From assembly GCA_963837785.1 (NCBI GenBank), contig CAWIOW010000031.1, forward strand, positions 38,256-102,255: a stretch of 64,000 nucleotides of DNA. The letters run 5' to 3'. The notes beneath the pieces were generated by a model. The model ran no database searches and was not told where the DNA came from. It saw only the letters and a program-made list of their open reading frames with translations. The translations under genes and the position numbers were made by a program. Below are positions 2,078 to 58,403 of this stretch, piece after piece (the stretch's first letter is position 1; every line of letters starts with the position of its first letter). This stretch comes from an uncultured Deinococcaceae bacterium (GTDB taxonomy: Bacteria; Deinococcota; Deinococci; Deinococcales; Deinococcaceae).

Positions 2078-3045
2078 GACTCCATTTAAGCCTTTATTTA
2101 AGCCTATTGGCCCTAGCTGGATTTACAGCAATGGCAGCGGCCCAATCTGCCCAGCCGCCTAGTATTCCAACACTTAGTATTCCAACACTTAGTATTCCAG
2201 CGCTTAGTATTCCAGCGCTTAGTATTCCAATAAATGTGAGTGCCACCACCAGTATTATTGGAGACTTTGTAAAAGTTGTTGGGGGCAACCGTGTAAACGT
2301 AAATTTAATTGTCCCAGTGGGAAGTGACACTCATACTTTTCAGCCCACAACCGCTGTTATTCGTGGCCTTAGCAAAAGCCAAATTCTCTTTGCCAACGGC
2401 GCAAACCTAGAGCCTTGGCTGCCCAAATTAACAACCTCTGCCCCAAAAGTGCCCGTTAAAATACTCACTGAGGGCCTAAAATTACATCCTTTTACCGAAG
2501 AAGACTCCACAGCTGCCACCGACCCCCATGCTTGGTGGGATATGAAGCTAGCCGCTGGCTATGTTAAAAATGCACAAGAGGCACTGAGTAAAATTGATCC
2601 AGCGGGCAAGGCTATTTATGCCAAAAATGCGGCGTTCTATACCAAACAACTTATGGCCCTAGACCAGTACGCCCAAAAACAGTTTGCTACCCTGCCAAGC
2701 GCCAATAAAAACATTGTAACCAATCACGACGCCCTCAATTATTTTGCACTTCGCTATCATCTTAAAGTGGTTGGCGCAGTAATTTCTGGCCTAAGCACCG
2801 AGCGCGAGCCTACCGCTAAAGAATTAGCCAATTTGGTGAAAGTGGTTAAAAAAAGCGGCACCAAAGTCATTTTTACTGAAAATACTGTAAATGCACGGCT
2901 GGCCCAAACCCTTGCCAGCGAAACTAGAGCCAAAATAGCACCCCCGCTATACACCGATGCACTAGGCCCAAAAGGAAGCGCTGGCGAGACTTTTCTAAAG
3001 GCATTTAGGTACAACATAGATACGATGGTGCGGGCCTTAAAGTAA
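2074..3045 (+). CDS. Zn/Mn ABC transporter substrate-binding protein (ZnuA/TroA family)
   Basis: Signal peptide; motifs [20 protein letters not shown] and YTDALG. Confidence 0.93.
2161..2230. repeat. In-frame 15-bp repeat AGTATTCCA(ACA/GCG)CTT x4.7 encoding [10 protein letters not shown]
   Basis: Two ACA copies followed by two GCG copies, just after the signal peptide. Confidence 0.95.
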
Positions 3046-3056
3046 GGCTTGTCTTG

Positions 3057-3104
3057 AGTGGTCTGGAAGATTAGTGGTCTGGAAGATTAGTGGTCTGGAA
3101 GATT
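3057..3104. repeat. Tandem repeat AGTGGTCTGGAAGATT x3 (16 bp), intergenic
   Basis: Read directly; followed by AGCCAAATTATT x2. Confidence 0.95.
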
Positions 3105-3207
3105 TTATTGGGCTTATTGCTAAGCCAAATTATTAGCCAAATTATTAAATGATGACCTGTTCTGCTGCCATTCTCACACCATAAGAGCAAAAGAGTATGA
3201 TGATCTG

Positions 3208-3930
3208 ATGCTTGGGGTAAGACAACTTACAGTGCACTATGGTTCACAAGTGGCCTTGCAAGACGTTAGCCTGCGTTTTGAAGCGGGCCAATTTACCGCC
3301 ATTATTGGCCCAAATGGTGCAGGCAAAAGCACTTTACTTAAAACGATGGTGGGTATTCTTCCCGACCCCCAAGGCGCAGTACAGTTTGACGTCGGACACA
3401 CCGCCCAAGATTGCGTTTCTTATGTACCACAGCAGCAAACATTAGATTGGGGCTTTCCGGTTACGGTCTGGGATGTTGCTATGATGGGGCGTACTGGGCG
3501 ACTAGGTTGGTTTAAATGGCCCGCCCACAAAGACAGGCAATTGGTGGTGCATGCCCTTAAAGAAACTGGCGTTTTTGACTTGCGTAGTCGCCATATTGGG
3601 GCACTTTCGGGTGGGCAGCGCCAACGGGTTTTGCTGGCGCGGATGCTGGTGCGGCATGGGCATCTTTTGTTACTAGATGAACCACTAACCGGAGTAGACA
3701 GCAGCACCCAAGAGCAGTTAATGGCCTTGCTGCGTGCAGAGGCTGGTAAAGGCCGCGCTGTGGTAATGATTACCCATGACCTAGAACAAGCCCGTCGTTG
3801 GTGTGACCGAATTGTGTTATTAAACAAGAAAGTGATTGCCGATGGCACCCCAGAAGAGGTTTATACACCGCAAAATATAGAAGCCACTTTTAGCAGCAGC
3901 TCCCTTGGACATAGCCATGCAAAAGCCTAA
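3208..3930 (+). CDS. Metal ABC transporter ATP-binding protein
   Basis: Walker [10 protein letters not shown], signature LSGGQ, Walker B LLLLDEP. Confidence 0.95.
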
Positions 3931-4016
3931 GCCTAAGCCAGTGCCAGCTTTTTTAATTGCCACCCTTGATTGTTTCCTTTACATTATTTCACATTTCACT
4001 CAGTATTTCACTCATT

Positions 4017-5071: not shown

Positions 5072-6109
5072 ATGGCACGGTTGGTTACTTTATTTACAGG
5101 GCAATGGGCAGATTTGCCGCTGGCAGAGTTAGCGCCGCTAGCAAAACAAATGGGGTACGATGGCTTAGAATTAGCGTGTTGGGGCGATCATTTTAATGTG
5201 CAGGATGCTTTAAACAAGCCTGAATACCTGCTCCAAAAACGGGCGCTATTGCAACACCATGGGCTTGAGTGTGTGGCTATTAGTAACCATTTGGTGGGCC
5301 AAGCTGTATGCGACCTGATAGACCCAAGGCACCAAAGCATTTTGCCCGCGCATGTGTGGGGCGATGGTGAACCTGAAGGTGTACGCAGGCGGGCCGCTAA
5401 GGAATTAGCCGACACAGCACGGGCCGCCGCTAAATTTGGGGTGAAGGTAGTTAATGGCTTTAGTGGTTCTAGCGTCTGGCATAGCCTTTATGCCTTTCCG
5501 CCCACCGATCAGGCGTATTGGTCGGCTGGCTTTAAGGATTTTGCCACGCGCTTTAATCCTATTTTGGAGGTGTTTGATGAGGTGGGCGTTAATTTTGCCC
5601 TAGAAGTTCATCCCACAGAAATAGCCTTTGACATTGCTACCGCCGAGCGAGCACTAGACGCTGTGGCCTATCACCCGCGTTTTGGCTTTAATTACGATCC
5701 CAGTCACTTAGCCTATCAACACGTCAATTACATAGAATTTTTGCGACGTTTTTCGGCGCGGATTATGCACACTCACATGAAAGACGTGTGGTGGGGGCAT
5801 GGCAACGGCGACATAGGCGTATTTGGCGGTCATAGCAGCTTTGGCGACCCCCGCCGCTACTGGGATTTTAGGTCGGTTGGGCGTGGCAACCTAAAATTTG
5901 AGGACATTATTGTGGCCTTAGATGACACTGGCTACACTGGCCCGCTTAGCGTGGAATGGGAAGACAGCCGCATGGAACGCGTGTACGGCGCAACCGAAAG
6001 CGCTGCTTATTTACGCAAATTAGATTTTCCGTCTTCTCATGTGGCCTTTGACGCTGCATTTACTGGAAAAGATACAGCTAGAAAAGATACAGCTAGGAAA
6101 GACCCATGA
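5072..6109 (+). CDS. Sugar phosphate isomerase/epimerase (xylose isomerase-like TIM barrel)
   Basis: Motifs [25 protein letters not shown] and SVEWED. Confidence 0.9.
6068..6103. repeat. In-frame 15-bp repeat (KDTAR x2.4) at the C-terminus
   Basis: AAAGATACAGCTAG(A/G) repeated. Confidence 0.85.
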
Positions 6110-12319: not shown

Positions 12320-12474
12320 TCCAGAAGATTGTTTAAAATTTGTGTATAAACAGAAAAGAGTTTACAGATTGGTATTTGGACCAACATAAATTAGCATTAT
12401 TAATCACTCTGCTTTATGAAATAAAGTGTGCCTGCCTGACCATCTGCAAAGGTGCCCAGTGCTACCCTTTAGCT

Positions 12475-15006: not shown

Positions 15007-16236
15007 ATGAACCAACCCCAGCCAAATTTACAGCCAAATTTACAGCCAGATAAGCTTAACTTTCCCATGTTTATTAGCGTAGAGCAGGCTAGGCAGCATT
15101 TACTGGACTTGCTCCCGCCACCACAATCAGAGTGGGTGACTGTGAGGGCGGCGCTTGGTCGTATTTTGGCGCAGGATTTGCCTGCATTGGTCAGCCACCC
15201 AAGCGCTACTGAAAGCGCCTTAGACGGTATTGCCGCCCGCGCCGCCGATACTGCTTTAGCCAGTGCTGCTGAGCCTGTTTGCCTTAAAGTCATTGGGGAA
15301 AGTCGGGCCGGATTGCCGTTTTTGGGCCAAGTAGAAGCTGGCGAATGTGTGCGGATTTATACCGGAGCGCCCATGCCAGCCGGAGCCGACGCCATTTGCC
15401 CAGTAGAACAACTTAAAGATGATGAACCAAATCATGTTTTGCTGCTGCGCCCCGCTTTGGTATCAGATGTAAGGCCCGAAGGCGGCGATTTTAAGGCTGG
15501 CGAAGTGGTGTTAAATGCGGGCTTATGGCTTACTGCGCCGCGTGTGGCTTTGGCAGTGGCTTTGGGTTATGCCAAAATTCCGGTACAAAAAAAGTGGCGG
15601 GTGGCGCTGTTATCTACCGGAGATGAAGTAGTAGAGCCAGGGCAGCCGCTGTTGGCGGGCCAAGTCTATGACAGCAACCGAATTGGCCTTGGGGCCATGC
15701 TGCAAGAAAGCGGCTGTGAGGTCATTCAGCTAGGGCACGCGCCAGACAGCCCCGAAGCGCTACAAGCTAGTATTTTGGGTGCAGGTGGGGCCGATTTACT
15801 GCTAACCAGCGGCGGCGTAAGCATGGGCAAATACGACTTTATGCGCGACCTGCTGATAGAACATGGCAAAGTATCATTCTGGAAAGTGCGAATGCGTCCG
15901 GGGGGGCCAGCTATTTTGGGTGGCTGGAACGGGCTGCCTGTGTTTGGTTTGCCGGGCAATCCGGTGAGTAGTTTGGTGGTGTATCACGTTATTGTTCGCC
16001 CAGTCTTAACGGGTCAGCCGCTGCAACTGCTAAAGCTGCGGGCCGCTACCCCATTTCGGGGTTTGCCAGACAAAACAGCCTTTTGGCGCGGCGTTATTAA
16101 AGACGGCCTTGTGCATGATTATAAAAACCAAGGCAGCGGCATTTTGCGCTCTCTTTCTGAGGCAGGGGTATTGGTTATGGTTGCCGAAGGTGCGGAGGTT
16201 AAAGCGGGCGATGACGTGGACGTTATTTTGCTATAG
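15007..16236 (+). CDS. moeA: Molybdopterin molybdotransferase
   Basis: Motifs SALDG, IYTGAPMP, STGDE, SGGVSMG and GLPGNP. Confidence 0.94.
   Translation: MNQPQPNLQPNLQPDKLNFPMFISVEQARQHLLDLLPPPQSEWVTVRAALGRILAQDLPALVSHPSATESALDGIAARAADTALASAAEPVCLKVIGESRAGLPFLGQVEAGECVRIYTGAPMPAGADAICPVEQLKDDEPNHVLLLRPALVSDVRPEGGDFKAGEVVLNAGLWLTAPRVALAVALGYAKIPVQKKWRVALLSTGDEVVEPGQPLLAGQVYDSNRIGLGAMLQESGCEVIQLGHAPDSPEALQASILGAGGADLLLTSGGVSMGKYDFMRDLLIEHGKVSFWKVRMRPGGPAILGGWNGLPVFGLPGNPVSSLVVYHVIVRPVLTGQPLQLLKLRAATPFRGLPDKTAFWRGVIKDGLVHDYKNQGSGILRSLSEAGVLVMVAEGAEVKAGDDVDVILL
15019..15048. repeat. In-frame 12-bp repeat CAGCCAAATTTA (QPNL) at the MoeA N-terminus
   Basis: Read directly; 2.5 copies. Confidence 0.85.
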
Positions 16237-16844: not shown

Positions 16845-16949
16845 AGCAAGACCAACCTAGCAAGACCAACCTAGCAAGACCAATCTAGCAAGACCAATCT
16901 AGCAAGACCAATCTAGCAAGACCAATCTAGCAAGACCAATCTAGCAAGA
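16845..16949. repeat. Tandem repeat AGCAAGACCAAYCT x7.5 (14 bp), upstream of the rhodanese gene
   Basis: Two C copies followed by five T copies; no spacers. Confidence 0.97.
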
Positions 16950-21093: not shown

Positions 21094-21109
21094 CCCCCCC
21101 CCCCCCCCC
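21094..21109. repeat. C16 homopolymer
   Basis: Read directly; about 300 bp upstream of the first island gene. Confidence 0.9.
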
Positions 21110-21505: not shown

Positions 21506-22119
21506 TTTGTGATCCTAGAGTTGAATTGATACATCCATTTCCATATCTTGATGTTATGACACGAAAGGAGAGAACTTCGCCGGCTGAGGGTTGGAGTGTT
21601 GATCCAATGCGAGCAGATAACTTAGGGCGGGGGGAAGGCAACCTACGAGATTACACTGTAAAGTATCTAAGGCAATTTTCCCCAGAAAATTCTATTTTTT
21701 ATGATCCTGCATGTTTGACAGGCGAATTTTTAGCTGAATTAAAGCGCCATTTCCCAAATTGTATAACTATAAGACAAGACCTTAGTCAGCAAATGGTAGA
21801 TGTCGCTAAGCTTAGAGTTGATCAAGTTGTACAAGGGAATGCTATTAATCCCTATCCTAGTAAGCAGTCAGTAGATTATATGTTTGTTAGATTTTTAAAT
21901 GCTGAGGTAGTAACGTCTGAACAAGCCCACACAATTTTTGATCGATTAGTAGAAGTAATGAAAAATAGTGGTAGGATAATAATATTTGGTCATACTCCTG
22001 TTCTTATTCAATCATCTTACTTTAAGAAAAAAGGATTCATTGTAGATCAAATGCTTGGATACTTAAAAACAGAACCGTACATTTTCCGATATTACGTTTT
22101 ACGAAAATCTACTTCATGA
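21454..22119 (+). CDS. Class I SAM-dependent transferase, similar to Nat-type 3-amino-3-carboxypropyltransferases; probably 5'-truncated
   Basis: YDPACLTGEFL (SAM motif I), DLSQQMV, RFLNAEVV and FGHTPVL. The frame is open from 21454 with no good start or RBS. The Nat similarity is from recall. Confidence 0.6.
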   Translation, partial: ENFTFTPEEKAFLFDEVICDPRVELIHPFPYLDVMTRKERTSPAEGWSVDPMRADNLGRGEGNLRDYTVKYLRQFSPENSIFYDPACLTGEFLAELKRHFPNCITIRQDLSQQMVDVAKLRVDQVVQGNAINPYPSKQSVDYMFVRFLNAEVVTSEQAHTIFDRLVEVMKNSGRIIIFGHTPVLIQSSYFKKKGFIVDQMLGYLKTEPYIFRYYVLRKSTS

Positions 22120-26968: not shown

Positions 26969-27214
26969 AGCCAAGGGTATAATCTTATTATGGCTGAACG
27001 TTGCAGTGAGTCACTAATATTTCTAGAAGAGGCTTTAAAGATCCTACGTACTCGATACCCCATATTTCCGCTAATTGAAAAGCGCATTCTTGAGATGATG
27101 CTTGTGGCCCACGCGGAACAGGGGCATGACCAAACCGTGATAGAACTTGAACACGCGCTTGATCAACAAGAAGCCCTTGCCGCCGCAAGACTGGGAGCTG
27201 CTTATACTTCCTGA
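26969..27214 (+). pseudogene. 3' fragment of a helical/TPR-like protein, truncated at the IS remnant
   Basis: QGYNLIMAERCSESLIFLEEALKIL...; begins abruptly at the IS junction and ends at the MFS gene. Confidence 0.4.
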
Positions 27215-28457
27215 AAAACTGTCTGAAAAACTGTGGAATAAGAACTTCACTGCTTACTTTGCAGCCACTGGGTTTTCATGTTTTGGAAGTACCTTCACAT
27301 TAGTAGCTCTGGGCTATCTAACCTACGAGAAAACTGGTTCTACCACAGGCTTTGCTATTAGCCTAGCCATCTCAGCAGGCACGGCTCTGCTAAGCCCTAA
27401 AGCTGGCGTTCTGGTCGATAAATATCCTCTCAAACCGATGCTCGTACTAGGCGATTTTATTCGCGGCTTGCTGCTTCTAGCTTTAGTTTTTGCAACCATA
27501 ACAAACCACTTTCATGTGGCTTTGGTATATATAGTTAGTCTTTTTAATGGGCTAATTGGACTTGTTTACAGGCCGGCTATTGGCAAGTTAATTCCCCGCA
27601 TGGTTCCCAAAAACCAGATCATGCGGGCCAATGGCTTAATGGGATCTATGTATAACACAGCTTCGATTCTTGGTTTCTTACTAAGTGGCACAGTTATGGC
27701 CTTTGTTGGCTCTACAACTACTATGCTTATTGATGCACTGACATTTCTTGTTATGGGCCTCGTCTTCTTATTCATTAATACAGGCGAGAAAGCCGCTGTA
27801 GCTTCAGCTAAACAAACTTCTACGCCAAAGCTCGAAAAGCCCGAAGGAAGCTGGCCCGTCTTTCAGTACATGGTAAGCAGCGGCATGCTCATTTGTCCTT
27901 TGCTCATTTTTCTTAGTTCCTTATACATTGCGCCGTTTCGTATCATTCTGCCTGAGCAGTTTAGCAGCCACATATTTGGTGCATTTTTCGCCTTTTACGC
28001 GATAGGAACTTTGCTTGCGGGCTTAACCACTGCCTATTTTAACCAGCGACTACTCCGCCGAGATGTACTGATAGTTAGTGTGTTGGCTGCACCTGTCTGT
28101 CTGGTACTTGCGGCCCTAACAACTCAGCCAAGCGCTTACTTTGCTATAGCACTACTTCTAGGCTTCTTCAATGACACCAGCAGTACGATCGCCTATTCCA
28201 GTATTCAGATGCTCATTCGTGATGACATTCGAGGTCGGGTGTTTGGCATTATGGGCCTAATTGAACGCGGCGGTATGCCCTTAGCGTACCTCACCCTCTC
28301 TGGTATGATTAATGCCTACTCCACCAGCATAATCTATATCATCTTCGCTACCGTTCTCTTAGCCATCTCACTGGGCATCATTACCTATTTGGTAAAACAA
28401 AATCTGTTAGGGCCAGACTCTCTTACCACTACAGACTCCCTTACCGCCACCGAATGA
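27147..28457 (+). CDS. MFS transporter (DHA3/macrolide-efflux-like); true start probably near 27220
   Basis: Motifs LWNKNF, AGVLVDKY, ANGL and RGRVFG. Confidence 0.88.
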   Translation: MNTRLINKKPLPPQDWELLILPEKLSEKLWNKNFTAYFAATGFSCFGSTFTLVALGYLTYEKTGSTTGFAISLAISAGTALLSPKAGVLVDKYPLKPMLVLGDFIRGLLLLALVFATITNHFHVALVYIVSLFNGLIGLVYRPAIGKLIPRMVPKNQIMRANGLMGSMYNTASILGFLLSGTVMAFVGSTTTMLIDALTFLVMGLVFLFINTGEKAAVASAKQTSTPKLEKPEGSWPVFQYMVSSGMLICPLLIFLSSLYIAPFRIILPEQFSSHIFGAFFAFYAIGTLLAGLTTAYFNQRLLRRDVLIVSVLAAPVCLVLAALTTQPSAYFAIALLLGFFNDTSSTIAYSSIQMLIRDDIRGRVFGIMGLIERGGMPLAYLTLSGMINAYSTSIIYIIFATVLLAISLGIITYLVKQNLLGPDSLTTTDSLTATE

Positions 28458-29569: not shown

Positions 29570-29651
29570 GGTACTCATAAATGGGTACTCATAAATGGGT
29601 ACTCATAAATGGGTACTCATAAATGGGTACTCATAAATGGGTACTCATAAA
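29570..29651. repeat. Tandem repeat GGTACTCATAAATG x5.9 (14 bp), intergenic
   Basis: Read directly from the sequence. Confidence 0.97.
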
Positions 29652-35529: not shown

Positions 35530-37078
35530 TATTCAAGGTTTGGTAGCTGTGGCGGTTATTGGTACGTTGCGGGGCAAGTTGCCTGTTCATGGGGAAGCTG
35601 GTCAGGGTGAAATTGGTCAGGGTGAAATTGGTCAGGGTGAAGCTGCTTTAGCTGAAACTTTAAATAGTATCGTTAAACCCGACCCAGAAAGCACTTTACT
35701 GGCCCGTGCAGCCATTGCAAGCTTGGCCCAAGTGGCAGGCCAGCAGCCAAAACGGGGCGAGGTTAGTGCTGTTCAAAGCGCCCCACCTGAAACGCTTTCT
35801 GCCGCTCCAGAAGTATTTGCACGGCATTTTGAAACCATTATGGCTCATACTCCTGCCCTGTTGCCAGATGCCCTGTTGCCAGAGTGGTTAAAACTGTGTT
35901 CAGCGGGTAGCTGGCATATTCCACACCGTTTTTTGCCAGTTGTACTGGAATACGCGGCAGGTGGCAGAATAGAAGTGCAAGAAGCCTTGGCCCCTGCTTT
36001 AAGCAAGCGTGGGGCGTGGCTAGCCCAATTAAATCCAAAATGGCGCAGATTAGCCGAGATTGACCTTGAAGTTTGGGAAAAGGCTACCGACGCGGAAAAA
36101 GAAGCCATTATTCGTACCCTTAAAGCACACGATTTAGCCGCCGCTGCCACATGGTTAAACACACACTTTAAAACCGAGCCGACCACCGTGCGTAAGCGCT
36201 TGCTGAACAGCCTTCAAAGAAGTTGGCGGGCTGAAGATGCCCAACTAGAACCGCTGTTAGAGGAGGCTTTAACTGATCGCAGCGCCGATGTGCGAGAAGT
36301 GGCCCGCGTACTATTGCAAGGTATTCCCGCTAGCGCCTATAACACTCGTATGGCGGCCCGTGCAAAAGCGCTGATTTCTACCGAAAAAGCGAGCCTGCTA
36401 GACAGGTTAAAAGGCAAGAAAAAATATTTTCTTAATTTGCCAACCATGCCTGATTCTAAGCTTAAGCAAGATGGTCTAATCGAAACTATTCAGGCTGAAA
36501 CCACGCAAGCCAGCCAGCGGCTAGAAGAATTATTGACTAAGACACATTCCCAGCGGCTACTGGAAGAATTAGAGCTAAACCCTAAAACACTTTGCGAATT
36601 GGCCCAACACTTAGATGCCCTAGATGCTTTGGCACGCGGCGCTGTGGCTGTAAGTCACTCAGCTTTGGCGTTGCAACTCTTGCCTTACCTTAAATCCACC
36701 GACCCACAATACCTGCCTTTGCTGCGTATTTTGCCAGAGCAGCAGCGGCTAGAAAAACTGCACGAATTACTAAAAACCGAAAACTATTCAATGATTGGAC
36801 TGTTATTAAGCACTTTGCCCAAGCCTTGGCCTATAGCCGTTAGTAATAGCGTGCTGCAAAAGCTGCTTAACAATAAACAAAGTGAAAGAAAGTATGATGA
36901 GACCAATTGGGACGCTGTTTCAAGGTTGGCAGAGGTGGGCATGCACCCAGACACTACTTTTTCAATTGAAGAGCTGTCTCATATTACCGATTATGCCTAT
37001 CTGCTGCTCATTAATTTGCACACTACAACAGAATTACGCGCCCAAATATACGCCGATTTTAAGGCAGCGCGGGTATGA
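35522..37078 (+). CDS. DUF5691-like helical-repeat protein
   Basis: AVIGT, LLPEWL, RGAWLAQLNPKW and LEEALTDRS..VR motifs; position within the SWIM-AAA-VWA cluster. Confidence 0.75.
   Translation: MSDIQGLVAVAVIGTLRGKLPVHGEAGQGEIGQGEIGQGEAALAETLNSIVKPDPESTLLARAAIASLAQVAGQQPKRGEVSAVQSAPPETLSAAPEVFARHFETIMAHTPALLPDALLPEWLKLCSAGSWHIPHRFLPVVLEYAAGGRIEVQEALAPALSKRGAWLAQLNPKWRRLAEIDLEVWEKATDAEKEAIIRTLKAHDLAAAATWLNTHFKTEPTTVRKRLLNSLQRSWRAEDAQLEPLLEEALTDRSADVREVARVLLQGIPASAYNTRMAARAKALISTEKASLLDRLKGKKKYFLNLPTMPDSKLKQDGLIETIQAETTQASQRLEELLTKTHSQRLLEELELNPKTLCELAQHLDALDALARGAVAVSHSALALQLLPYLKSTDPQYLPLLRILPEQQRLEKLHELLKTENYSMIGLLLSTLPKPWPIAVSNSVLQKLLNNKQSERKYDETNWDAVSRLAEVGMHPDTTFSIEELSHITDYAYLLLINLHTTTELRAQIYADFKAARV
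35600..35641. repeat. In-frame 15-bp repeat GGTCAGGGTGAAATT (GQGEI) x2.8
   Basis: Read directly; a second 15-bp duplication (PALLP/DALLP) lies at about 35854-35883. Confidence 0.9.
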
Positions 37079-38600: not shown

Positions 38601-38798
38601 ATGAGTATGCGAAGTGTTTATTTGAGTGTTTATTTGAGTGTTTATTTGAGTGTTTATTTGAGAGTTAACTTAGCCGTTTTACTCAATGCGGCGGCTATAA
38701 CTGCTTGCTTTGGCATAATTTGGCTGGTATTACGATTTGAGACTTTTATAAATAAAGAATTGAGCAGTTTAAATAAAATAAAGAGTAATTTTTTATGA
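38601..38798 (+). CDS. Possible small membrane protein
   Basis: AGGAG RBS, one hydrophobic segment, and ATGA overlap with the next gene. Confidence 0.35.
   Translation: MSMRSVYLSVYLSVYLSVYLRVNLAVLLNAAAITACFGIIWLVLRFETFINKELSSLNKIKSNFL
38613..38660. repeat. Tandem repeat AGTGTTTATTTG x4 (12 bp; SVYL)
   Basis: Read directly from the sequence. Confidence 0.95.
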
Positions 38799-41116
38799 TT
38801 TCTATTTTTCCTATTCGTCATCACGGCCCCGGTTCGGCGCGTTCACTGCAAAAAGCACTAGAAAAGCTTAGGCCCGATATTGTACTTATTGAAGGCCCAG
38901 CCGACGCCGACCCCGTTATTCCGTTTTTATCGCACCCACAATTAAAGCCGCCAGTGGCACTTTTGGCTTATGTTAATGACAATCCTGCTAGGGCTGCTTT
39001 TTGGCCTTTTGCGGTTTTTAGTCCGGAATTTGTGGCATTTCAATGGGCGGCACAGGCTAGCAAAGTGGCGCGTTTTATGGACTTGCCTGCTAGTGCCACT
39101 TTAGGCATAAGCAAGCCCGACCCAGACAGTGCTAATTCAGACAGTGCTAATTCAGACAGTGCTAATTCAGACAGTGCTAATTCAGACAGTGTTAATTCAG
39201 ATGATGAACTGCGTGCCGACCCTATGCAGGTTTTGGCACAGGCGGCAGGGTACAGCGATTTTGAGTGCTGGTGGGAAACGTTGGTAGAAGCACGCGGGGA
39301 CGATACAGACGTATTCGCGGCGATTTTGGAGGCCATGCAAGAACTACGGGCCACCTCCAAAACGCTTACATTGCGCGAAGCCCAGCGTGAGGCGCACATG
39401 CGCGGGGCTATACGGGCGGCCCAAAAAGAAGGATTTATCAATATTGCTGTGGTTTGCGGGGCATGGCATTCGCCTGCGCTGGATGTAGAAGCATTTAAGG
39501 TGAAAGACGACACTGCGCTGCTAAAAGGGCTGCCTAAAGCCAAAGTAACCCTAACTTGGGTGCCTTGGACACATGGGCGATTGGCAAATATCAGCGCGGG
39601 AGAGTGGCAGTACGGCGCGGGGGTGCGCTCGCCAGGGTATTACCACCACCTTTTTATTACGCCAAAGGAGGTAACTGAGCGGTGGTTTGTACGTGTGGCG
39701 CGGCTCTTGCGTGATGAAAAACTAGAAGCCAGCAGCGCCAGCGTGATAGAGGCAACCCGCCTAGCCAATACCCTTGCAGCCCTTCGTGGACGCACTCTTG
39801 CTGGACTAGATGAACTAAACGAGGCCGCCCTAAGTGTGTTTGGCTGGGACAGTGACCTTCCGCTAAGGCTTATCTCCGAAAAACTGATTGTGGGTGAGGC
39901 TTTAGGCCGAGTACCCGACGACACGCCCACCGTGCCACTGGCCCAAGACTTAAGCAAGCAACAGAAAAAACTGCGCTTAAAGGTTCAAACCGAGCAGCTT
40001 AAATTAGAGCTAGACCTGAGAACCGACAATGATTTGGCGCGAAGTACGCTGTTTTATCGCCTTAATTTGCTGGGCATAGCCTGGGCCAACCAGCGGTACA
40101 GCAGTGGGCAGGGCACTTATAAAGAAGCCTGGGCACTCACTTGGAAACCCGAAATGAGCGTGCAAGTAGTAGAGGCCAGCCTCTATGGTCAGACTGTAGA
40201 GCAAGCCGCTAGCGCACAGGCCAGCGAAACGGCCCGCCGTAGCCAGTCTCTAATTGAACTTAGCAAACTACTAGAAATTATTCGTTATGCCGACCTGACC
40301 GCAGCCTTGCCTACCGCGCTAGATTCCTTAAATGCTCGCGCCGCCCAAAGCGCCGATGTCAGCGATTTGTTGGAAGCCTTGCCGCCGCTGGCCCGCCTTT
40401 CTCGCTATGGGGATGTGCGCAGGCGCAACGCTGGGGCGAGTGAGCAAATTAATAACGCTATCAATAACGCTATCAATAACGCTACCGATAACGCGACTGC
40501 CACCGCTTTAGCGTTACTTACACGCGCCTGTGTGGGCTTGCCTATTGCCGCCATTGGTTTGAGCGACACCGCTGCCGAAGTGTTGCAAAAGGCTGTAGCG
40601 AATGCTGATGCTGCCGTACATTTGCTAGCCAATGCCGACGCCCTAGCCGAATGGCAAGAAGCCCTGCAACACCTAGCCGATAGGGAAGACACTCACCCCT
40701 TACTAAACGGCGACGCTACCCGCAGGCTACGCGACGCCCAAAAATTAAATACAGATGAACTAGAACGCCGTATGGCTTTGGCCTTGGCTGCAAGTCATCC
40801 CCCGCTAGAAGTTACGGCTTGGTTAGACGGGTTTTTGGGCAAAAATGGTGACCTGCTTATTCATGATAAGACCCTGCTATCCTTAATAGACGGCTGGCTT
40901 AGCTTTCTTGATCCCGAAACTTTTCAAGAAGCATTGCCACTCTTAAGGCGAACCTTTTCGCGCTTTGCCAAAGCTGAACGTAGGGCTATTGGGGAAAATT
41001 TAAAAGGTGGCAGCCTAAATATTAAGGCTGTGCAAAACGAGCTACACGCACAGCGGGCCATGCGAGTGGTGCCGATAGCCTTAAGAATACTGGGAATAGC
41101 CAAGCTAGAAAAATGA
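38795..41116 (+). CDS. DUF5682 family protein (YehM-like)
   Basis: Motifs IRHHGPGSA, LIEGP, FSPE, REAHM and VVCGAWH. Confidence 0.88.
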   Translation: MISIFPIRHHGPGSARSLQKALEKLRPDIVLIEGPADADPVIPFLSHPQLKPPVALLAYVNDNPARAAFWPFAVFSPEFVAFQWAAQASKVARFMDLPASATLGISKPDPDSANSDSANSDSANSDSANSDSVNSDDELRADPMQVLAQAAGYSDFECWWETLVEARGDDTDVFAAILEAMQELRATSKTLTLREAQREAHMRGAIRAAQKEGFINIAVVCGAWHSPALDVEAFKVKDDTALLKGLPKAKVTLTWVPWTHGRLANISAGEWQYGAGVRSPGYYHHLFITPKEVTERWFVRVARLLRDEKLEASSASVIEATRLANTLAALRGRTLAGLDELNEAALSVFGWDSDLPLRLISEKLIVGEALGRVPDDTPTVPLAQDLSKQQKKLRLKVQTEQLKLELDLRTDNDLARSTLFYRLNLLGIAWANQRYSSGQGTYKEAWALTWKPEMSVQVVEASLYGQTVEQAASAQASETARRSQSLIELSKLLEIIRYADLTAALPTALDSLNARAAQSADVSDLLEALPPLARLSRYGDVRRRNAGASEQINNAINNAINNATDNATATALALLTRACVGLPIAAIGLSDTAAEVLQKAVANADAAVHLLANADALAEWQEALQHLADREDTHPLLNGDATRRLRDAQKLNTDELERRMALALAASHPPLEVTAWLDGFLGKNGDLLIHDKTLLSLIDGWLSFLDPETFQEALPLLRRTFSRFAKAERRAIGENLKGGSLNIKAVQNELHAQRAMRVVPIALRILGIAKLEK
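39123..39201. repeat. In-frame 15-bp repeat CAGACAGTGCTAATT (DSANS) x5
   Basis: Read directly; the last copy is DSVNS. Confidence 0.96.
40451..40486. repeat. In-frame 12-bp repeat AATAACGCTATC (NNAI) x3
   Basis: Read directly from the sequence. Confidence 0.88.
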
Positions 41117-41596
41117 TAGAAGGTTGTTAAATTTGATGAATAATGATGGAATTTATAAGATTATTTAAAGATTAAGCTAAGATAGTTGATATATTTGCTG
41201 TGGATTTTAATCTACTCTAAAGTTAATCAAAGTATTTTGGCGGAGATGTAGACTCTTTAAATGGGCCTCATTGCTGAAATCTGCGACCAAAGTGGAGCGT
41301 AATACTATTTTTCTGTGCCCGATAGTTTCCCTCAAAGTAGATTCCCTCAAAGGACTGTGGTTTTAGTCTGTACTACGCTAAAAATGATCTTTTGAAGGCT
41401 AAACTTAAGTTTTTGGCTTTTCTCAACTGGATAAACAGCGTTAAACAAATAAAAACACAGTTTATATACTCTTGAGTAATATCTCAACTCATTTTGAGTA
41501 TATTTCTTATTTTTATAAAGGTAATAATTCTGAAATCTACCTATAACTAAGATTATTAAGAAGTATTTGAAAGTTTTTAATTGGAGGATATTGTAG

Positions 41597-43594
41597 ATGA
41601 GTAATATTGCCCATCATTCTAAAACTCATAGGCAAACATCATCTTTGCCGCAAACTAAAGGAAAAGAATGGCAAGGAGCTGCTACGGTATGGATTATTTT
41701 AACTGGTGTAATAGTAGCTCACTTACTTGTATTACTTCAATTTTGGATTTTCCCACAATATTGCTATTTACCAGATAAATGGTTTAGTATTGTTATACTA
41801 TTATGTATGTTTGGCTTGGCTTTAGCCAACCTGATGCATTGGATTACCAAGAAAACGGTATTTTCAATGTTAATTATTATGAATATGGTATTTTTGCTGA
41901 CCAGATTTGGATTTTCTTTATTTGTTGTCGGGAGCATAGGAAAAATTCAAACCGAGCTTTCCACTTTTATGATTTGGTCTTTAACTATACCTATGCTAGC
42001 GGTGAGTGTGAAAGTAACACGCCTTGCCAAGCAGGCAAGTATTGCTCTGCCATTTGTGATATTATTGATGTCACTTGCTTTTTTTGGTTACCACAAATTT
42101 TCGATAAACTCAGAGATATGGTTTGGTCTTATTCAATTAATACTCGTATCTTTTACAGTTCTTCTTTCGGCTCAATCTATTAATAAACTAAGAGCCGCTC
42201 TTAAAAATAGTATAGCTGATAACAATACTTTAAGTTGACTTGCCTTTCAAGACAACTTAACTGGACTAAGAAACCGTGCTTTTTTAGATCAATACCTAGC
42301 TAAGCTTTGTGATAATGATCAGAAACTAGCCGTATTGTTTTTTGATTTAGATGGATTTAAGGCTATTAATGATACCTTGGGCCACGCTACAGGTGATCAG
42401 GTTTTGCGATTGGTAGCAAAGCGATTGACTAATCTTAGCCATCCTATTCTTAGCCATCCTGTAAATTGTATGGCTCGTGTTAGTGGTGATGAATTTGTAG
42501 TGGTTATAGAAGGCCAAACTCATTTAGTAGTAGCCCAGCTTGCTCAAAACATTATTAGCGAATTAGTTATGCCTTTTAGTATAGATGGTAATTTATTGGG
42601 CCTAAGTGCCAGTATGGGAATCTCATTTTTCCCCCAAGATGCTAAAGATGTTCACGAATTATTACTAAGAGCAGACCGTGCTATGTATGAAGTAAAGCGC
42701 AGTGGCAAAAATGGGTTTCAGTTTTATAAGTCAAATCCTACTGTGATAGATGAGCAGCGCCAGTTTTTAGAGCGAGAACTTCGTTTAGCGCAGGTGCGCG
42801 GTGAATTGTCTTTAGAGTTTCAACCTATTTTTAATATGCATGTCGGCGAAACCGTTTGTCTTGAGGCACTGGTACGATGGAAACACGCTCAATTTGGGAA
42901 GATTGAGCCACGGATTTTTATTGCAATAGCCGAAGAATGTGGTCTTATTTCTACCATTGGCGAATGGGTTCTTAAAGAATCTTTGGCTTCTGCAAGGCGT
43001 TGGTGGGATAATGGTTTTAGCCATATTCGGGTTGCTGTAAATGTTTCACTTTTACAACTCATGCAGACCCAATTTGTAGAAGTGGTACGCCTTGCCTTAG
43101 AAGGGGCTAATTTGCCACCAAATGCACTAGAATTAGAAGTTACTGAGGGGATTGACTTACGTGAACGTAGCCAGGTGATGAATACCTTGATTCAATTACA
43201 TGAACTTGGAGTTTTGTTATCACTAGATGACTTTGGTACAGGGTTCGCGTCATTGTCGCACCTTAACGATTTTCCGGTGCAGGTTGTTAAAATCGATAAG
43301 GTCTTTGTTGCCGATTTGGTGGGCACAACCAGCCCCGCCCGTAATCGCTATGTCCGTACTTTAATCGCTGCTATGGTCACAGTGGCTTCAGAATTGGGGT
43401 TAGATTTGGTGGTTGAGGGTATAGAAACCAGAGCGCAATACGAGGAATTGTTATTACTAGGTTGCCGCAGAGGCCAAGGTTATTACTTTTCAAAACCCAT
43501 GCCTGAAGCTGATTTGTTGATGTCGCTTAATCGGCTAAGCTTGGCGGCTGGGAATGTTCTTTGTAATTCAGAAACGACGATGCTTCATTCTTAA
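41597..43594 (+). pseudogene. Membrane GGDEF-EAL protein split by one in-frame TGA (42236-42238)
   Basis: The frame continues past the TGA as LAFQDNLTGLRNR...FFDLDGFK, then SGDEF, EALVRW and DDFGTG. Confidence 0.85.
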
Positions 43595-43982
43595 ACGCTT
43601 CATTCTTAAGCTGGCGAAAACAGGCACAGAAATAGGAGATAGCCCTAAAAGTCCGCTCCGCAGCATCCGTCTCTCGGTCAGCTACGTAGCCAGCTTTGGG
43701 GCCGTTTGGTAATAGATAAATAATTTGCTAGAATATGTGTGTAGCTAAATTGAAGCGCGAAAGTTAAGGCTTTATTCTTCTCTAGCAAGGAGACTTATTC
43801 ATGACAGAGGCCGTTGTAAAGCAAGTTAAGCTGAAAAAAATGAATTCAGCCAAGCAAAGATATAGATTTGTATTGGTTCATAATTTTAAGCAAACTTCTC
43901 TAATAAGCCATAAAACTATCTTAAATCATTTAAAATCTGCATTTACATTTAATTGTAACCTATTTAATCACTTGGAAACCAG

Positions 43983-44033
43983 CCTATGACTAATCCTATG
44001 ACTAATCCTATGACTAATCCTATGACTAATCCT
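43983..44033. repeat. 12-bp repeat CCTATGACTAAT x4 containing the start codon (MTNP x4)
   Basis: Read directly from the sequence. Confidence 0.96.
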
Positions 44034-45206
44034 GATACAGAACGGTTTCGGCGCTGGCGTTTGGTGCTGGGTGGGGGAGAGGCAGACGGCCTAAGCTTTG
44101 GCGAGAGTGGGGCCGAGATGCAGTTTTCTATGGAAGATAGGCGGATGGACAGCGCACTTAGTGAATTGTATGAAGGTGGCAATTCGGCAAAGGGTGGGCT
44201 AGGGGGTAGTGCGCCGAAAGTGGCTCGCTGGCTGGCAGATTTGCGCGAGTTTTTCCCGGTAAGTGTGGTGCGGGTTATGCAGCAAGATGCCATAGAGCGC
44301 CTTAATTTGACCCAGCTTTTATTTGAGCCAGAAATGATGGAAAACATTGAGCCAGACGTTAATCTTGTGGCAACGCTGCTGACGCTTAAGGGGGTGATGC
44401 CCGCCAAGGCCAAAGACGCTGCCCGCGCTGTGGTTCGCAAGGTGGTAGATGACCTCATTAAACGCCTAGAAGAGCCGACCCGCGCCGCTGTTTCGGGCAG
44501 CCTTAACCGTGCCCAGCGCAATTTTCGCCCACGCCCCAGTGAAATAGATTGGGACAAGACCATTCGGGCCAACCTAAAAAACTATCTTCCAGATCGCAAA
44601 ACCATCATTCCAGAGCGCCTAATTGGTATGGGCCGCAAACGCCGCAGCCTGCGCGACATCGTGTTATGCCTTGACCAGTCGGGCAGCATGGCCTCTAGCG
44701 TTATTTATGCGGGTGTGTTTGGCGCAGTGCTTGCCAGTTTGCCCGCTGTAAGTACCCGCGTGGTGGTGTTTGATACCGAAGTGGTGGATTTATCCGAGGA
44801 CTTAGATGACCCCGTAGACGTGCTGTACGGCATTCGCTTGGGCGGCGGCACCGATATAAACCGCGCCCTTGCCTACTGCCAAAACATTATTGATAAGCCA
44901 GAGCAAACCATTTTAATTCTTATTTCTGACCTTTACGAAGGCGGCAACGAGCGCGAAATGCTGGCTCGTGCGCGGGTGCTTAAAGATGCGGGCGTTAATT
45001 TTATTGCGCTGCTGGCCCTCTCTGATGATGGTGCGCCTAGTTACGATCACGGTGTGGCCCGTGCTTTTGCGGGAATGGGTATTCCGGCTTTTGCCTGTAC
45101 GCCCGATTATTTTCCGGCGTTAATGGCAGCGGCTATTCGCGGTGACGACATTAGCACTTGGGCAGGCGACCAAGGAATAGTAACCAAGGGCGGGGCTGTC
45201 GGGTAG
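43986..45206 (+). CDS. VWA domain protein (YehP/CoxE-like)
   Basis: RRWRLVLG, MIDAS DQSGSM, GGGTDI and ISDLYEG. Confidence 0.9.
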   Translation: MTNPMTNPMTNPMTNPDTERFRRWRLVLGGGEADGLSFGESGAEMQFSMEDRRMDSALSELYEGGNSAKGGLGGSAPKVARWLADLREFFPVSVVRVMQQDAIERLNLTQLLFEPEMMENIEPDVNLVATLLTLKGVMPAKAKDAARAVVRKVVDDLIKRLEEPTRAAVSGSLNRAQRNFRPRPSEIDWDKTIRANLKNYLPDRKTIIPERLIGMGRKRRSLRDIVLCLDQSGSMASSVIYAGVFGAVLASLPAVSTRVVVFDTEVVDLSEDLDDPVDVLYGIRLGGGTDINRALAYCQNIIDKPEQTILILISDLYEGGNEREMLARARVLKDAGVNFIALLALSDDGAPSYDHGVARAFAGMGIPAFACTPDYFPALMAAAIRGDDISTWAGDQGIVTKGGAVG

Positions 45207-46361: not shown

Positions 46362-46946
46362 ATGACTGAAGCAAGTCTTGGCCCTTCATCTTTTATTGTG
46401 TTGGGATTGTTGTCACTTTATGGCGCGGGTACTTCCTACGAGCTTAAGCGCTGGGCTGATGAATCTGTGGGTTACTTCTGGACTTTTCCACGCTCTCAGC
46501 TTTATGCCGAACCCCAGCGCTTAGTCACCCTTGGTCTACTTACAGAGCAACAGGAAGAATCAGGCCGCCGCAAACGCACTTTTAAAATTACACAGGCGGG
46601 CCAAGAAGCTCTAAAAGCTTGGTTGGGTCGGCCTGCGGGTGTGCCAGAACTGCGAGACCTTGGTCTGCTTAAATTGTTTTTTATAGACTGTGCCAATGTC
46701 GAAGCTTTACCACACCTAGCTGCCGAGCAATTGGCCCTTCATCAAGCCCGATTGACTGAGTATGAGAAGTTGCAAGAGGCCAATCATCACTTAGAGGGGT
46801 CTTCGGAAGCCACCACCCTACGAATGGGATTTTTGTATGAGCGGGCCAGTATCGCTTTTTGGTCAGAAGTACAAGCATCCAGCCCACAAGCATCCAGCCC
46901 ACAAGCATCCAGCCCACAAGCATCCAGCACTATTCAGGCTGATTAG
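46362..46946 (+). CDS. PadR family transcriptional regulator
   Basis: GYFW...SQLY, ITQAG..AL..WL and LLKLFF; TACACT-N6-ATG start. Confidence 0.88.
   Translation: MTEASLGPSSFIVLGLLSLYGAGTSYELKRWADESVGYFWTFPRSQLYAEPQRLVTLGLLTEQQEESGRRKRTFKITQAGQEALKAWLGRPAGVPELRDLGLLKLFFIDCANVEALPHLAAEQLALHQARLTEYEKLQEANHHLEGSSEATTLRMGFLYERASIAFWSEVQASSPQASSPQASSPQASSTIQAD
46871..46928. repeat. In-frame 15-bp repeat ACAAGCATCCAGCCC (QASSP) x3.9 at the C-terminus
   Basis: Read directly from the sequence. Confidence 0.96.
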
Positions 46947-55701: not shown

Positions 55702-55714
55702 AACCAGATAGATA

Positions 55715-56008
55715 CTACTCATCATTGTCCCAGCTTGTAAAACCTTCTTTACGGCGGGACTTTTTGCCTTTTTTCTTGGCGGGCTTGGGCGGCATGGCTA
55801 ACACATATGGGCCGTTACCACACGGCGAGGCCACTTCGCCTAGCCGCCTTAGCGGGTCGTCTCGCTCATTGCCTGCCAAATGAACATGCCTGCCATCGCA
55901 AAAGGGGCACTGGCCCACCGACCAAAACAGGATTTTCGTGTTTGGCATAGGCAATAACTGCGCGTAAGCTGGAGGCGTGATTAGAGGTTGGCGGTGCTTT
56001 TTAGCCAC
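55715..56008 (-). CDS. Small hypothetical protein with CxxC-x3-HxH...C
   Basis: CPFCDGRHVH...PC followed by a Lys-rich tail. Confidence 0.65.
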   Translation of the reverse strand: MAKKHRQPLITPPAYAQLLPMPNTKILFWSVGQCPFCDGRHVHLAGNERDDPLRRLGEVASPCGNGPYVLAMPPKPAKKKGKKSRRKEGFTSWDNDE

Positions 56009-56087
56009 AGCCTAGGCTAGAGCGCTAGGACTTTAAACACCGTGAGCGTGCAGCCAAAACCATAGAACATGTTTCTAATAGTCGTCA

Positions 56088-56399
56088 TTAGCCCGCAATA
56101 TCGCGCAGTTTTTCTACGCGGCTAGCCAACTCGCTTAACTCTAAAGAACGCAAAGATTTGGTGGTGCGGCTCATGCCTGCTTCGTCTATTCGGCCTTGGT
56201 TCCAGCCTGCAATCAGCATGGCGCAGCCCTGAAGCGCGTCTGTTACGGTTTCTCTGTGAAACATTGCCGCAAGGTTGCTGGCCCCAACGGGCTTTGTTTG
56301 CTGAATTTGGGCCTGAGTGTCTAGCACCACTTGTATAAAAACTTGGTCTAAGCGCGCACGGTCATTGGCAGAAATAGCTTTTCCAGTACTTTGGGTCAT
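56088..56399 (-). CDS. Hypothetical protein
   Basis: 103-aa ORF with TAAACT-N6-ATG start. Confidence 0.7.
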   Translation of the reverse strand: MTQSTGKAISANDRARLDQVFIQVVLDTQAQIQQTKPVGASNLAAMFHRETVTDALQGCAMLIAGWNQGRIDEAGMSRTTKSLRSLELSELASRVEKLRDIAG

Positions 56400-56462
56400 A
56401 CCTTTAGTTTAAGGGCCAGCACTATTGCTCATACTATTGTTAAGCTTAGGCGGGTATTAAGC

Positions 56463-58403
56463 TTAGGCGGGTGCTGTGCCCTCTGGTGATAAAATGGTTA
56501 TCGCCCCTCTAGTGCTTGCATCCGTCTCTCGGTCAAGTTGCCCGCCCTCAAGCAAAGTGGCAAATTCGGCCCCCGTTAGGGTTTCGCGTACTAACAAAAT
56601 TTCTACGATCTTGTGCATCTGTTGCAAATACTGCTGGGTCAGCCTCAGCACTCGTTGATAAGCTAAGTCAATTAACTTTTTAACCTCTTCGTCAATTAAT
56701 CGGGCCGTTGCTTCGCTCATCGGCACAAATTGCGATCTACCACCCAGATAATCGCCTTGGTTTTGGGCTAGGGCCACTTTGCCAATTCGGTCACCCATGC
56801 CCCACTCGGTCACCATGCGGGTGGCGATACTGGTGGCTTGCTGAAAGTCACTTTGCGCGCCTGTGGTGATTTCGCCGTAAACAACTTCTTCGGCAGCGCG
56901 CCCTGCCAAAGCCACTGCAATCATGTCTTCTAGAGCAGGGCGGGTGACGTGCAAGCGGTCGTCTGCGTCGGGCATCATGTAGCCAGCCGCCTGCCCCCGA
57001 GGCACGATTGTTAATTTGGCAACGCGGTTGGCGTAGGGCAAAAGTTGAGCAGCAAGGGCATGACCAACTTCGTGGTAGGCAGTGATTTTACGGTCTGCGG
57101 CCCTGACCACCATGCTACGGCGCTCTGGCCCCATCAGCACTCGGTCACGGGCTTCTTCCACATCCTTATCCATAATTCTTTTACGGCCTTCACGGGCGGC
57201 TAACAAGGCTGCTTCATTCAATAAATTTTCTAGGTCTGCGCCTACCATTCCAGCGGTTCGGCGGGCCACCACCCCAAGGTCTACGCTGACATCTAGGGGT
57301 TTTTTACGAGCATGTATTCTTAAAATTTGTTCACGGCCTCGGACATCTGGGGCGTCTACCACCACTTGGCGGTCAAACCGACCTGGACGCAGCAAGGCTG
57401 CGTCTAGCACATCTGGTCGGTTGGTAGCTGCCAAAATAATAACTTCTTTAGCAGAGCCGAAACCGTCCATTTCTACTAAAAGTTGGTTTAAAGTTTGTTC
57501 GCGTTCGTCGTTGCCACCTTGCATACTTAAGCCCCGTTTACGTCCTACTGCGTCAATTTCATCAATAAAGACGATACAGGGGGCCGATTTGCGGGCTTGT
57601 TCAAACATGTCGCGGACACGGGCCGCTCCAACCCCAACAAACATTTCTACAAAGTCTGAACCACTAATAGAAAAATAAGGAACTTTGGCTTCTCCAGCAA
57701 CCGCTTTGGCAAGTAAGGTTTTACCAGCACCGGGCGGGCCAACCAATAAGATGCCGTGCGGAATTCTGGCTCCAAGTTGGTGGTATTTTTCGGGTTGTTT
57801 TAAGAAGCCAACGATTTCTTGTAAATCTTGCTTGGCTTCATCGCAGCCAGCCACGTCGCTAAAATTAAGTTTCATTTGCCCTTCAGCAATCACCGATGCC
57901 TTAGACTTTCCAAACCCGCTGGCGCCTCCGGTGGGATTGCTATTTTTTAGCGTGCGCCAAAGCATAAGCAAGACTAGGGCGGTTAAAATAAGGGGCAAGA
58001 CTTGCCCAATCCAACCAAAAGGTGAGCCTGCTGCCACCACTTTTAAGGGCACATTGGCTGAGCGAATTTTGTCTAAGGTGGCCCCATCCGCAGGCACAAC
58101 CAAAGTACGCGGTCTCATATTGGCAATAAAAGCGACTGTTGCCGTGCCAGAACTATCCAAGATGACTTGTTTTACTTTGTGATCGCTTAAGTCTTTAAAA
58201 AATTTATTGGTGGTGTATATTCCAGAATCTTTTGTCTCTGTACTTGGTTTAATGGTACTTGGTTTAATGGTACTTGGTTTAATGACAGTAGCGTTAACAA
58301 CACTGGAAAAAGCAGAGGCTTGGTGGGCATTTTGCGATTGTGCGGCTGGGCCAAAAGCAAGCAACCCCACAAGCATGATAAGGGGCCGTGCAAAGCGGTT
58401 CAT
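56463..58403 (-). CDS. ftsH: ATP-dependent zinc metalloprotease FtsH
   Basis: [21 protein letters not shown] and HEVGH. Confidence 0.96.
58240..58284. repeat. In-frame 15-bp repeat (IKPST x3) in the FtsH N-terminal region
   Basis: GTACTTGGTTTAATG x3. Confidence 0.95.

Follow-up and report, generated by a model that had tools for sequence, protein, structure and literature searches.

How do exact tandem repeats of 12 or 15 bp come to lie in gene after gene of one bacterial chromosome, seemingly always in frame? The question is raised by a stretch of 64,000 nucleotides from an uncultured member of the Deinococcaceae, which we call the window and which corresponds to G000:C31:38256-102255 of a 2.43-Mb assembly (G000; 49 contigs, 74.5% complete). 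Deinococcus-specific models and named homologs place this assembly in Deinococcus. A preliminary description of the window named ten such arrays inside genes, attributed them to a generator acting without regard to reading frame, and saw selection as the filter that leaves new, probably disordered segments in housekeeping proteins. Over the whole assembly, we observed frame-blind local duplication, change by whole units, and selection by frame, site and residue type. We consider it probable that this lineage makes local tandem copies of 10 to 18 bases, and that selection strips those that break the frame or hit conserved sites, leaving polar inserts in loops and at protein ends. The inserts themselves are most likely tolerated by-products, not adaptations.

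A flood of short arrays and its filter

Arrays were defined as exact repeats with at least two copies of a primitive unit of 10 to 18 bp. The assembly contains 1,110 of them, against 1 in an order-5 Markov genome. Once merged they number 1,055, with 1,024 distinct units, and they are present on all 49 contigs, in the midst of ribosomal and core genes; the commonest unit sits in a multicopy insertion sequence. Units of 19 to 60 bp form only 23 arrays, and units of 1 to 4 bp show no excess. Between genes, the commonest unit length is 14 bp, and counts drop off sharply above 17. The complete genome of the congener G084 (2.57 of 2.97 Mb used, orthologs at 2.4-2.8 Mb being outside all counts) holds 30 such arrays, that is, 1.2 per 100 kb as compared with about 46 in G000, a roughly 40-fold difference. 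The units are poor in GC (0.335 versus 0.402 for the local DNA) and fold less than their own shuffles. Coding units contain 35% A, versus 27% in genes, while intergenic units are A+T-rich without strand bias. Partial flanking copies are common, and no motif was found at array boundaries. Unit composition was unbiased with respect to the inferred replication strand (198 versus 192), a weak test with contig orientation weakly given by skew. One array of 13 bp and one of 14 bp lie in 6 kb of another Deinococcus genome (L034/L199, G114:C118), too little DNA to judge whether the trait is shared.

The preliminary description suggested comparing unit length modulo 3 between genes and intergenic DNA genome-wide. 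With the 2,158 genes of a self-trained gene caller, units were triplet in 331 of the 339 arrays inside genes and in 191 of the 577 intergenic ones (33%; p 1e-97). On gene calls alone, this is a circular test, since any open reading frame (ORF) that acquired a non-triplet array would be split by it. Coding DNA was therefore redefined by homology, by chaining tblastn matches of G084 and G007 proteins across frames, which gave 1,422 spans covering 1.13 Mb; there, all 116 arrays were triplet. Repeats that act as switches in phase-variable contingency loci are non-triplet and coding, a kind represented by 0 of these 116, and no frameshift junction detected in the spans was attributable to a non-triplet array of 10 to 18 bp. 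The eight non-triplet arrays in called genes comprise five at most 51 bp from the stop, two close to the start called for the same insertion-sequence gene, and one in an interior. A further 93 non-triplet arrays lie over stop codons, 26 of which extend back into the final codons of the gene for a distance greater than one unit. At intergenic density, the expectation for genes would be some 806 triplet arrays and 1,630 non-triplet ones, figures somewhat inflated by the AT preference of the generator, and we saw 331 and 8; even triplet arrays are sparser in genes (16.9 per 100 kb) than between them (41).

The claim that coding arrays always preserve frame thus stands in homology-defined DNA, and is nearly but not strictly true of called genes, given the exceptions and the reach into last codons. 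That coding units always measure 12 or 15 bp is correct for the ten named arrays; coding units of 9 and 18 bp also occur, and two coding arrays (at 27211 and 35854) had been missed. The proportion of triplets between genes bears out a frame-blind generator, and the fully triplet set in homologous coding DNA, together with a 13-fold fall in array density with protein conservation, bears out selection as the filter. The frame filter is ordinary purifying selection, and has already been published for the archaeal Borg elements.

The same homology spans suggest that the consensus is error-prone. Frameshift junctions in homologous genes number 61, of which 47 belong to the +1 class; among the genes affected are alaS, lon, rplL, ftsA and mutS, names that we assigned by reading the partner sequences. 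This amounts to about one single-base shift per 20 kb of conserved coding DNA, essential genes included; in the window, rpoA shifts frame near 49530. These single-base shifts are likely consensus errors. In the window, the ORFs 41597-42238 and 42335-43594 resemble one GGDEF-EAL gene split by a frameshift (about 42240-42335). With so many single-base frameshifts, the frame argument alone is insufficient against a sequencing artefact. However, across four classes of rising conservation (1,267 de-duplicated spans) frameshifts are flat, at 4.5, 3.7, 7.3 and 4.3 per 100 kb, whereas arrays fall from 18.2 to 17.0, 5.2 and 1.4, and never break the frame (p 1e-8). Reads over the region came from run X1 alone, at depth 2-5 and from a near-identical strain; X2 and X3 contributed next to none. 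One X1 contig covers the array at 35854 gap-free (piece 35674-35933, 0 gaps), and a single X1 contig of depth 3 lacks one 12-bp unit at 38652, the one polymorphic site observed in these reads.

Where the inserts sit was analysed on those 1,211 reciprocal best hits in which the partner protein is complete. The 206 arrays in these pairs comprise 44 at the N-terminus, 20 at the C-terminus and 142 within the aligned core. Terminal segments make up 5% of residues and carry 31% of arrays, an approximately six-fold enrichment. Core arrays have a flank identity of 0.39 versus 0.59 +/- 0.016 in 1,000 permutations, and in 86 of the 142 the partner shows a gap roughly matching the extra copies in length. 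Anchors were found for 128 arrays. For 39 of them the anchors lie no more than six residues away, and here length shows a net gain in 35, no change in 2 and a loss in 2; several of these tightly anchored arrays copy ancestral residues. With rising protein identity, array density runs 30, 34, 22, 8.8 and 1.9 per 100 kb, and genes at least 80% identical to the congener hold 4 arrays in 215 kb. It is on this last figure that exclusion from conserved genes rests, and not on ribosomal genes: none of those in the window carries an array, as had been remarked, but they are few and too short for this to be meaningful, and a composition filter for ribosomal proteins was uninformative (18 genes caught, mostly others).

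In all, 282 of the 2,158 called genes carry an array. Array units abound in N, T, S, P and Q, and the residues W/F/Y/C/I/M represent 6.2% of arrays, versus 13.4% of array-free variable segments and 24.2% of translated intergenic units. In the orthologs, to which the preliminary description also looked for a test, the repeat peptides are indeed missing: QPNL (MoeA) and IKPST (FtsH) are absent from the 16 congeneric orthologs listed for each, and both peptides of the DUF5682 protein (DSANS, NNAI) from 90 homologs. AlphaFold2 models of this protein (91 sequences, mean pLDDT 89.6) predict a low-confidence coil for DSANS (blocks 78, 55, 48), and for NNAI the start of a helix, as a predicted extension of that helix (62-81).

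The picture of disordered inserts in termini or linkers of housekeeping proteins therefore needs rewording. Terminal enrichment and polar composition are as proposed, and the DSANS coil agrees with disorder. However, LSHPI lies in a GGDEF domain, QGEIG, DSANS and NNAI lie inside Pfam spans, most arrays in ortholog pairs are in the core, and of the two inserts modelled, one should lengthen a helix according to the prediction. A better description is that the inserts occupy loops and ends and are for the most part flexible. As for new segments in housekeeping proteins, the most conserved ones largely exclude arrays, and nothing shows the inserts to be useful.

Birth and growth of the arrays

Multicopy elements of the assembly provide before/after pairs, with direction assigned by parsimony. 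In one element, which we take to be IS607-like from its resolvase and TnpB, a 16-bp unit at the element ends occurs once in 10 cases, twice in 10 and eight times in 1 (n=21 ends). Five one-to-several events in elements have a junction overlap of 0-2 bp. In 63 copies of six element families, we counted 324 distinct substitutions, 11 indels of 1-2 bp and 9 events involving units of 10-18 bp, or about one duplication event per 30 substitutions; the further changes are one 33-bp duplication and six other indels, and the eight-copy expansion is a tenth event of 10-18 bp. A 17-bp indel in the IS607-like family was considered as a duplication and rejected, being a plain deletion, and is not counted. 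This element (G000:C24:45121-46888 and at least 16 other copies) encodes a resolvase and a 438-aa TnpB and is present in 17 or more near-identical full copies; other TnpB, transposase and MITE-like families, the last of about 270 bp, have expanded as well.

Junctions can also be read in the arrays at large. Among 792 distinct two-copy arrays, 376 are clean, with no degenerate third copy. In 254 of these the overhang is 0, 1, 2 or 3 bp (130, 68, 32 and 24 arrays), where the null proportions are 0.54, 0.28, 0.12 and 0.04.

A course in three steps is proposed. At birth, a single stretch is doubled in place, mostly with junction homology at chance level; AT-rich, weakly self-folding DNA is preferred, lengths of 14-15 bp are the most frequent, and there is a hard cap near 18 bp. 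The likeliest cause would be nick- or break-based repair, with a short single strand freed at a nick or between two staggered nicks, filled in and rejoined untrimmed, and such fill-in of a melted or displaced strand would explain the missing homology, the AT preference and the length cap. Once two copies are present, whole units are gained or lost, presumably by slippage. Under the filter, as the statistics show, non-triplet arrays survive only between genes or over stop codons, and triplet arrays where a weakly conserved protein has a terminus or a loop. We hold growth and filtering, as well as the frame-blindness of the generator, to be highly probable, and birth at nicks, by an enzyme that we infer, to have about even chances. 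More speculatively, and with the odds rather against it, this may be a hitherto undescribed bacterial pathway of homology-independent duplication with a protein-set ruler capped near 18 nt, acting once per approximately 30 substitutions and as frequently as small indels, which has lengthened about 1 gene in 8 with loop peptides and is the chromosomal counterpart of the Borg repeat generator; altered Pol I flap processing is possibly the source of the ruler.

As for repair genes, MutS, MutL, RecJ, RecA, SbcD, RNase HII, a DnaQ-like protein and PolX were found. Loss of mismatch repair is rejected at the gene level, MutS and MutL both being present (mutS with one single-base frameshift near its end). 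Neither Pol I domain was found in the 74.5%-complete assembly, while the Pol I 5' nuclease is present in 34 of 34 near-complete relatives. The essential gyrA was not found either, nor were uvrB, uvrC and uvsE, though uvrA and mfd are present; most simply, polA, uvrB, uvrC, uvsE and gyrA are missing on account of incompleteness. Adjacency of glmM and polA holds in only 8 of 22 congeners, so that a missing neighbour is uninformative. The PHP region of DnaE and PolX are ordinary in comparison with G084. DnaE (G000:C42:729-5996) is 1,755 aa long and carries an insert of about 440 aa, not in G084, with ends that we take to be intein-like and with small peptide duplications of its own.

Several observations weigh against birth by local, homology-free duplication followed by filtering. 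A partial copy of 4-14 bp accompanies 122 of the 376 clean arrays (null about 2%), and two other element families expand from a pre-existing partial copy, both of which fit slippage seeded by short direct repeats. In the element pairs, exact loss of a unit would look identical to a gain. The intergenic excess reaches down through 4-9 bp, giving a soft lower size edge. In the core, 32 of 142 arrays align gap-free, a few of them being old protein-level repeats, and orthology was established via a single congener, G084, at about 70% median identity. Neither Ku nor an ATP-dependent ligase was found in the incomplete assembly, and canonical end-joining is thus unsupported.

The question arises as to whether another process could produce the flood. 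Seeded slippage, in which loops of 10-18 nt escape mismatch repair, would give both birth and growth; besides the partial copies just mentioned, it would accommodate the whole-unit polymorphism in run X1 and the weakly folding units, and mismatch repair is inefficient on longer loops, according to the accessible part of PMC4060949. It leaves unexplained the cap near 18 bp and the 40-fold excess over the congener. Junction overlap is at chance level in two thirds of the clean arrays and in the five element events, repeats of 1-4 bp show no genome-wide excess, and MutS, MutL, RecJ, SbcD and the DnaQ-like protein are all present; we consider this scenario unlikely. By analogy with FEN1/rad27 mutants, a lost or weakened 5' flap nuclease of Pol I might leave flaps at Okazaki junctions or repair patches to be ligated as duplications, and the flap would supply a protein-set length cap. 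The lack of any Pol I domain, when 34 of 34 relatives have the nuclease, points this way. However, the same incomplete assembly is also without gyrA, which is essential, and without uvrB and uvrC, the glmM-polA adjacency is infrequent among congeners, the weak test of replication strand gave no bias, and duplications of the rad27 type use flanking direct repeats; this origin seems rather improbable to us.

Three further scenarios concern what the arrays are. They might be kept as useful disordered segments or tuning knobs, as proposed for Borgs: more than one gene in eight carries one, the composition is disorder-promoting, and function is argued by the Borg authors in the accessible part of their paper (PMC9879509). 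Against this, genes hold triplet arrays at a lower density than the DNA between them, and conserved genes at the lowest, and the units are unique, missing from orthologs, and arise inside insertion sequences too, so we give usefulness very little credence. Alternatively, arrays could be footprints of integrases or transposases, through target-site duplication or a Cas1- or casposase-like activity. Target-site duplication does yield homology-free copies of defined length, and the genome is rich in insertion sequences, including the TnpB-bearing IS607-like family. Yet the copies stand head-to-tail with neither spacer nor element between them, no boundary motif is seen, lengths are spread over 10-18 bp, arrays lie inside the elements themselves, and Cas1 was not found in the incomplete assembly, all of which makes footprints a far-fetched explanation. 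Finally, sequencing or assembly artefacts might be suspected from a consensus error-prone enough to shift frame in essential genes. But frameshifts are flat with conservation where arrays fall and keep the frame, run X1 has one array unchanged and another one unit shorter, and separate element copies have the same duplication in common. We regard this last scenario as very improbable and already largely refuted, in agreement with the preliminary description, which had argued against an artefact. Our preference remains with local duplication of 10-18 bases and subsequent selection.

Arrays and neighbouring genes of the window

All ten named arrays were found in place, with units of 12 or 15 bp. 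In the window as a whole, units of exact 10-18-bp arrays are triplet in 11 of 11 inside genes and in 7 of 19 between genes; gene edges are crossed by two more, a triplet array at a start and an 11-bp array at a stop. The SIPT/AL array (15 bp x4.7; 2160..2230, +) lies between the signal peptide and the ZnuA domain (from residue 55) of an MntC-like protein (2074-3045), and KDTAR (15 bp x2.5; 6066..6102, +) at the C-terminus of a xylose-isomerase-like protein (5072-6109). QPNL (12 bp x2.5; 15019..15048, +) forms part of the N-terminal tail of MoeA. QGEIG (15 bp x2.9; 35599..35641, +) is near the N-terminus of a DUF5691 protein (35522-37078), within which a second in-frame array (15 bp x2; 35854..35883, +) is one of the two that had gone unlisted; the other (12 bp x2; 27211..27234, +) is near the N-terminus of an MFS transporter. 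In the DUF5682 protein (38795-41116), DSANS (15 bp x5.3; 39123..39201, +) occupies a hypervariable loop and NNAI (12 bp x3.7; 40451..40494, +) a second loop, of 34 residues versus 16-25 in 90 homologs.

LSHPI (15 bp x2.1; 42429..42460, +) is a 5-residue gain directly before the ARxSGDEF motif of its GGDEF domain. MTNP (12 bp x4.2; 43983..44033, +) runs across the start of the VWA_CoxE gene; it begins 3 bp upstream of the first ATG and contains an ATG in every unit, so that its translated extent is ambiguous. QASSP (15 bp x3.9; 46871..46928, +) belongs to the C-terminal tail of a PadR regulator, and IKPST (15 bp x3; 58240..58284, -) to a variable segment past the signal peptide of FtsH (56463-58403). 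An 11-bp x2 array (62781..62802, +) over the stop codon of gene 62146-62790 exemplifies the non-triplet class tolerated at stops. Between genes, the longest array of the window (14 bp x7.5; 16845..16949) is of the non-triplet class, a perfect 14-bp x5.9 array (29570..29651) lies downstream of rsgA, and a 12-bp x4.5 array (38613..38666) is the one that has a unit fewer in an X1 contig. Coding units of other lengths in the window measure 9 bp (31934, 51767) and 18 bp (33262).

An SLH-domain surface protein carries, at 33160-33345, imperfect collagen-like and Thr/Gly repeats of 9/18 bp. These align gap-free with the congener, and therefore appear from sequence to be an older protein-level repeat which is no part of the flood. 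The cluster of SWIM, DUF5691, MoxR-like AAA, DUF5682 and VWA_CoxE genes at 34177-45206 is broken by the GGDEF-EAL gene. A low-GC island (33-38%) at 21526-28457, almost array-free and possibly recently acquired, encodes a methyltransferase, a 436-aa protein without Pfam match, an asparagine-synthase-like amidotransferase and two transporters. The longest homopolymer of the assembly, 16 C in a row, lies at 21094-21109, and a putative tRNA-Glu of 91 bp, predicted by ARAGORN (12360-12450, -), lies directly upstream of the thioredoxin reductase start.

The genome has no close relative among those searched: MoeA and FtsH of the top congeners show 76-80% identity (in 41 and 111 genomes), 10 metagenome loci are no nearer than congeners, and for DUF5682 the top match is 70% identical. 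Its GC content is 47.1%, versus 61-74% across 42 congeneric loci. GC3 is about 47%, and C>T and G>A prevail among substitutions in element copies, in most of the families, which suggests that GC erosion is still under way.

Comparison with known repeat systems

The closest known counterpart is found in Borgs. In the accessible part of Schoelmerich et al. 2023 (PMC9879509), all Borg repeats in ORFs have units divisible by three, versus 14-38% of intergenic ones, units are unique, and repeats cover 0.62% of the genome, as compared with at most 0.01% in Methanoperedens. By the Borg definition (perfect, at least 50 nt and at least 3 units), G000 has 149 arrays covering 0.42% of its genome. The likeness to that description (PMC9879509) extends to perfect locus-unique units, triplet units in ORFs, partial flanking copies, richness in A, polar peptides poor in F, C and R, and copy-number variation, which in G000 is thin for the reads (one X1 contig), with 1, 2 or 8 units among element copies. 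Unlike the Borg, a linear archaeal extrachromosomal element as described there, G000 carries its arrays on ordinary bacterial chromosomal contigs, confines its units to about 10-18 bp, mostly in 2-3 copies, and gives us reason to favour tolerance over function. The flood works like Borg repeats but is not a member of that group, because its arrays are on a bacterial chromosome.

Prokaryotic satellites, defined by at least 4 repeats of 10-200 nt, offer a second comparison, above all those of Methanosarcina, which like the arrays of G000 have short and for the most part unique units. Perfect arrays with at least 4 copies and units of at least 10 bp number 88 in G000, or 36 per Mb, the other arrays having fewer than 4 perfect copies. 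In the accessible part of Subirana and Messeguer 2019 (PMC6749651), Methanosarcina species have 7-89 satellites per Mb, and the top bacterium in the survey of 119 species has 23. The 88 arrays thus qualify and place G000 within the Methanosarcina range and above every bacterium in Table 1 of that work, under a stricter perfect-copy rule and with a different program. Short bacterial satellites derive, in the same account (PMC6749651), from microsatellite families of 6-8 bp, whereas the units of G000 are primitive and unique. Borgs and Methanosarcina pose the same question as G000, namely how non-repetitive DNA gives rise to perfect tandem repeats.

Long simple sequence repeats of prokaryotes, with a heptamer class, were reportedly treated by Mrazek et al. 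2007. Like this class, the flood runs through the whole genome and has units of a length that mismatch repair handles inefficiently, as far as the accessible part of PMC4060949 goes. It differs in that the class has units of 5-11 bp dominated by recurring 7-mer motifs, whereas G000 has its peak at 14-15 bp, nearly all its units distinct (1,024 of 1,055), and non-triplet units excluded from gene interiors.

For the birth step, the nearest precedent comes from plants and mammals, where homology-free tandem duplications at paired nicks are documented, according to the accessible part of PMC5730883. Head-to-tail local duplication without prior repeats is common to both, as seen here in 254 of 376 arrays and in five element events (compare PMC5730883); the eukaryotic route described there uses Ku and ligase IV, whereas Ku and an ATP-dependent ligase were not found in the incomplete G000. 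Literature searches, in which most subscription papers lay outside the coverage, returned no description of such arrays in Deinococcus.

The frame rule was expected and published; the generator is what counts. From the insertion-sequence copies of G000 one obtains before/after pairs, an approximate rate and the signature of the junctions, and the genus includes members that are amenable to genetics. The arrays are also a natural experiment in which about 280 proteins have received insertions, showing which loops accommodate 4-30 additional residues. Set beside Borg repeats, prokaryotic satellites, the heptamer class and the paired-nick route, what is new here is that a bacterial chromosome has a dense, length-capped generator, for the most part independent of homology, whose rate can be estimated from the genome itself.

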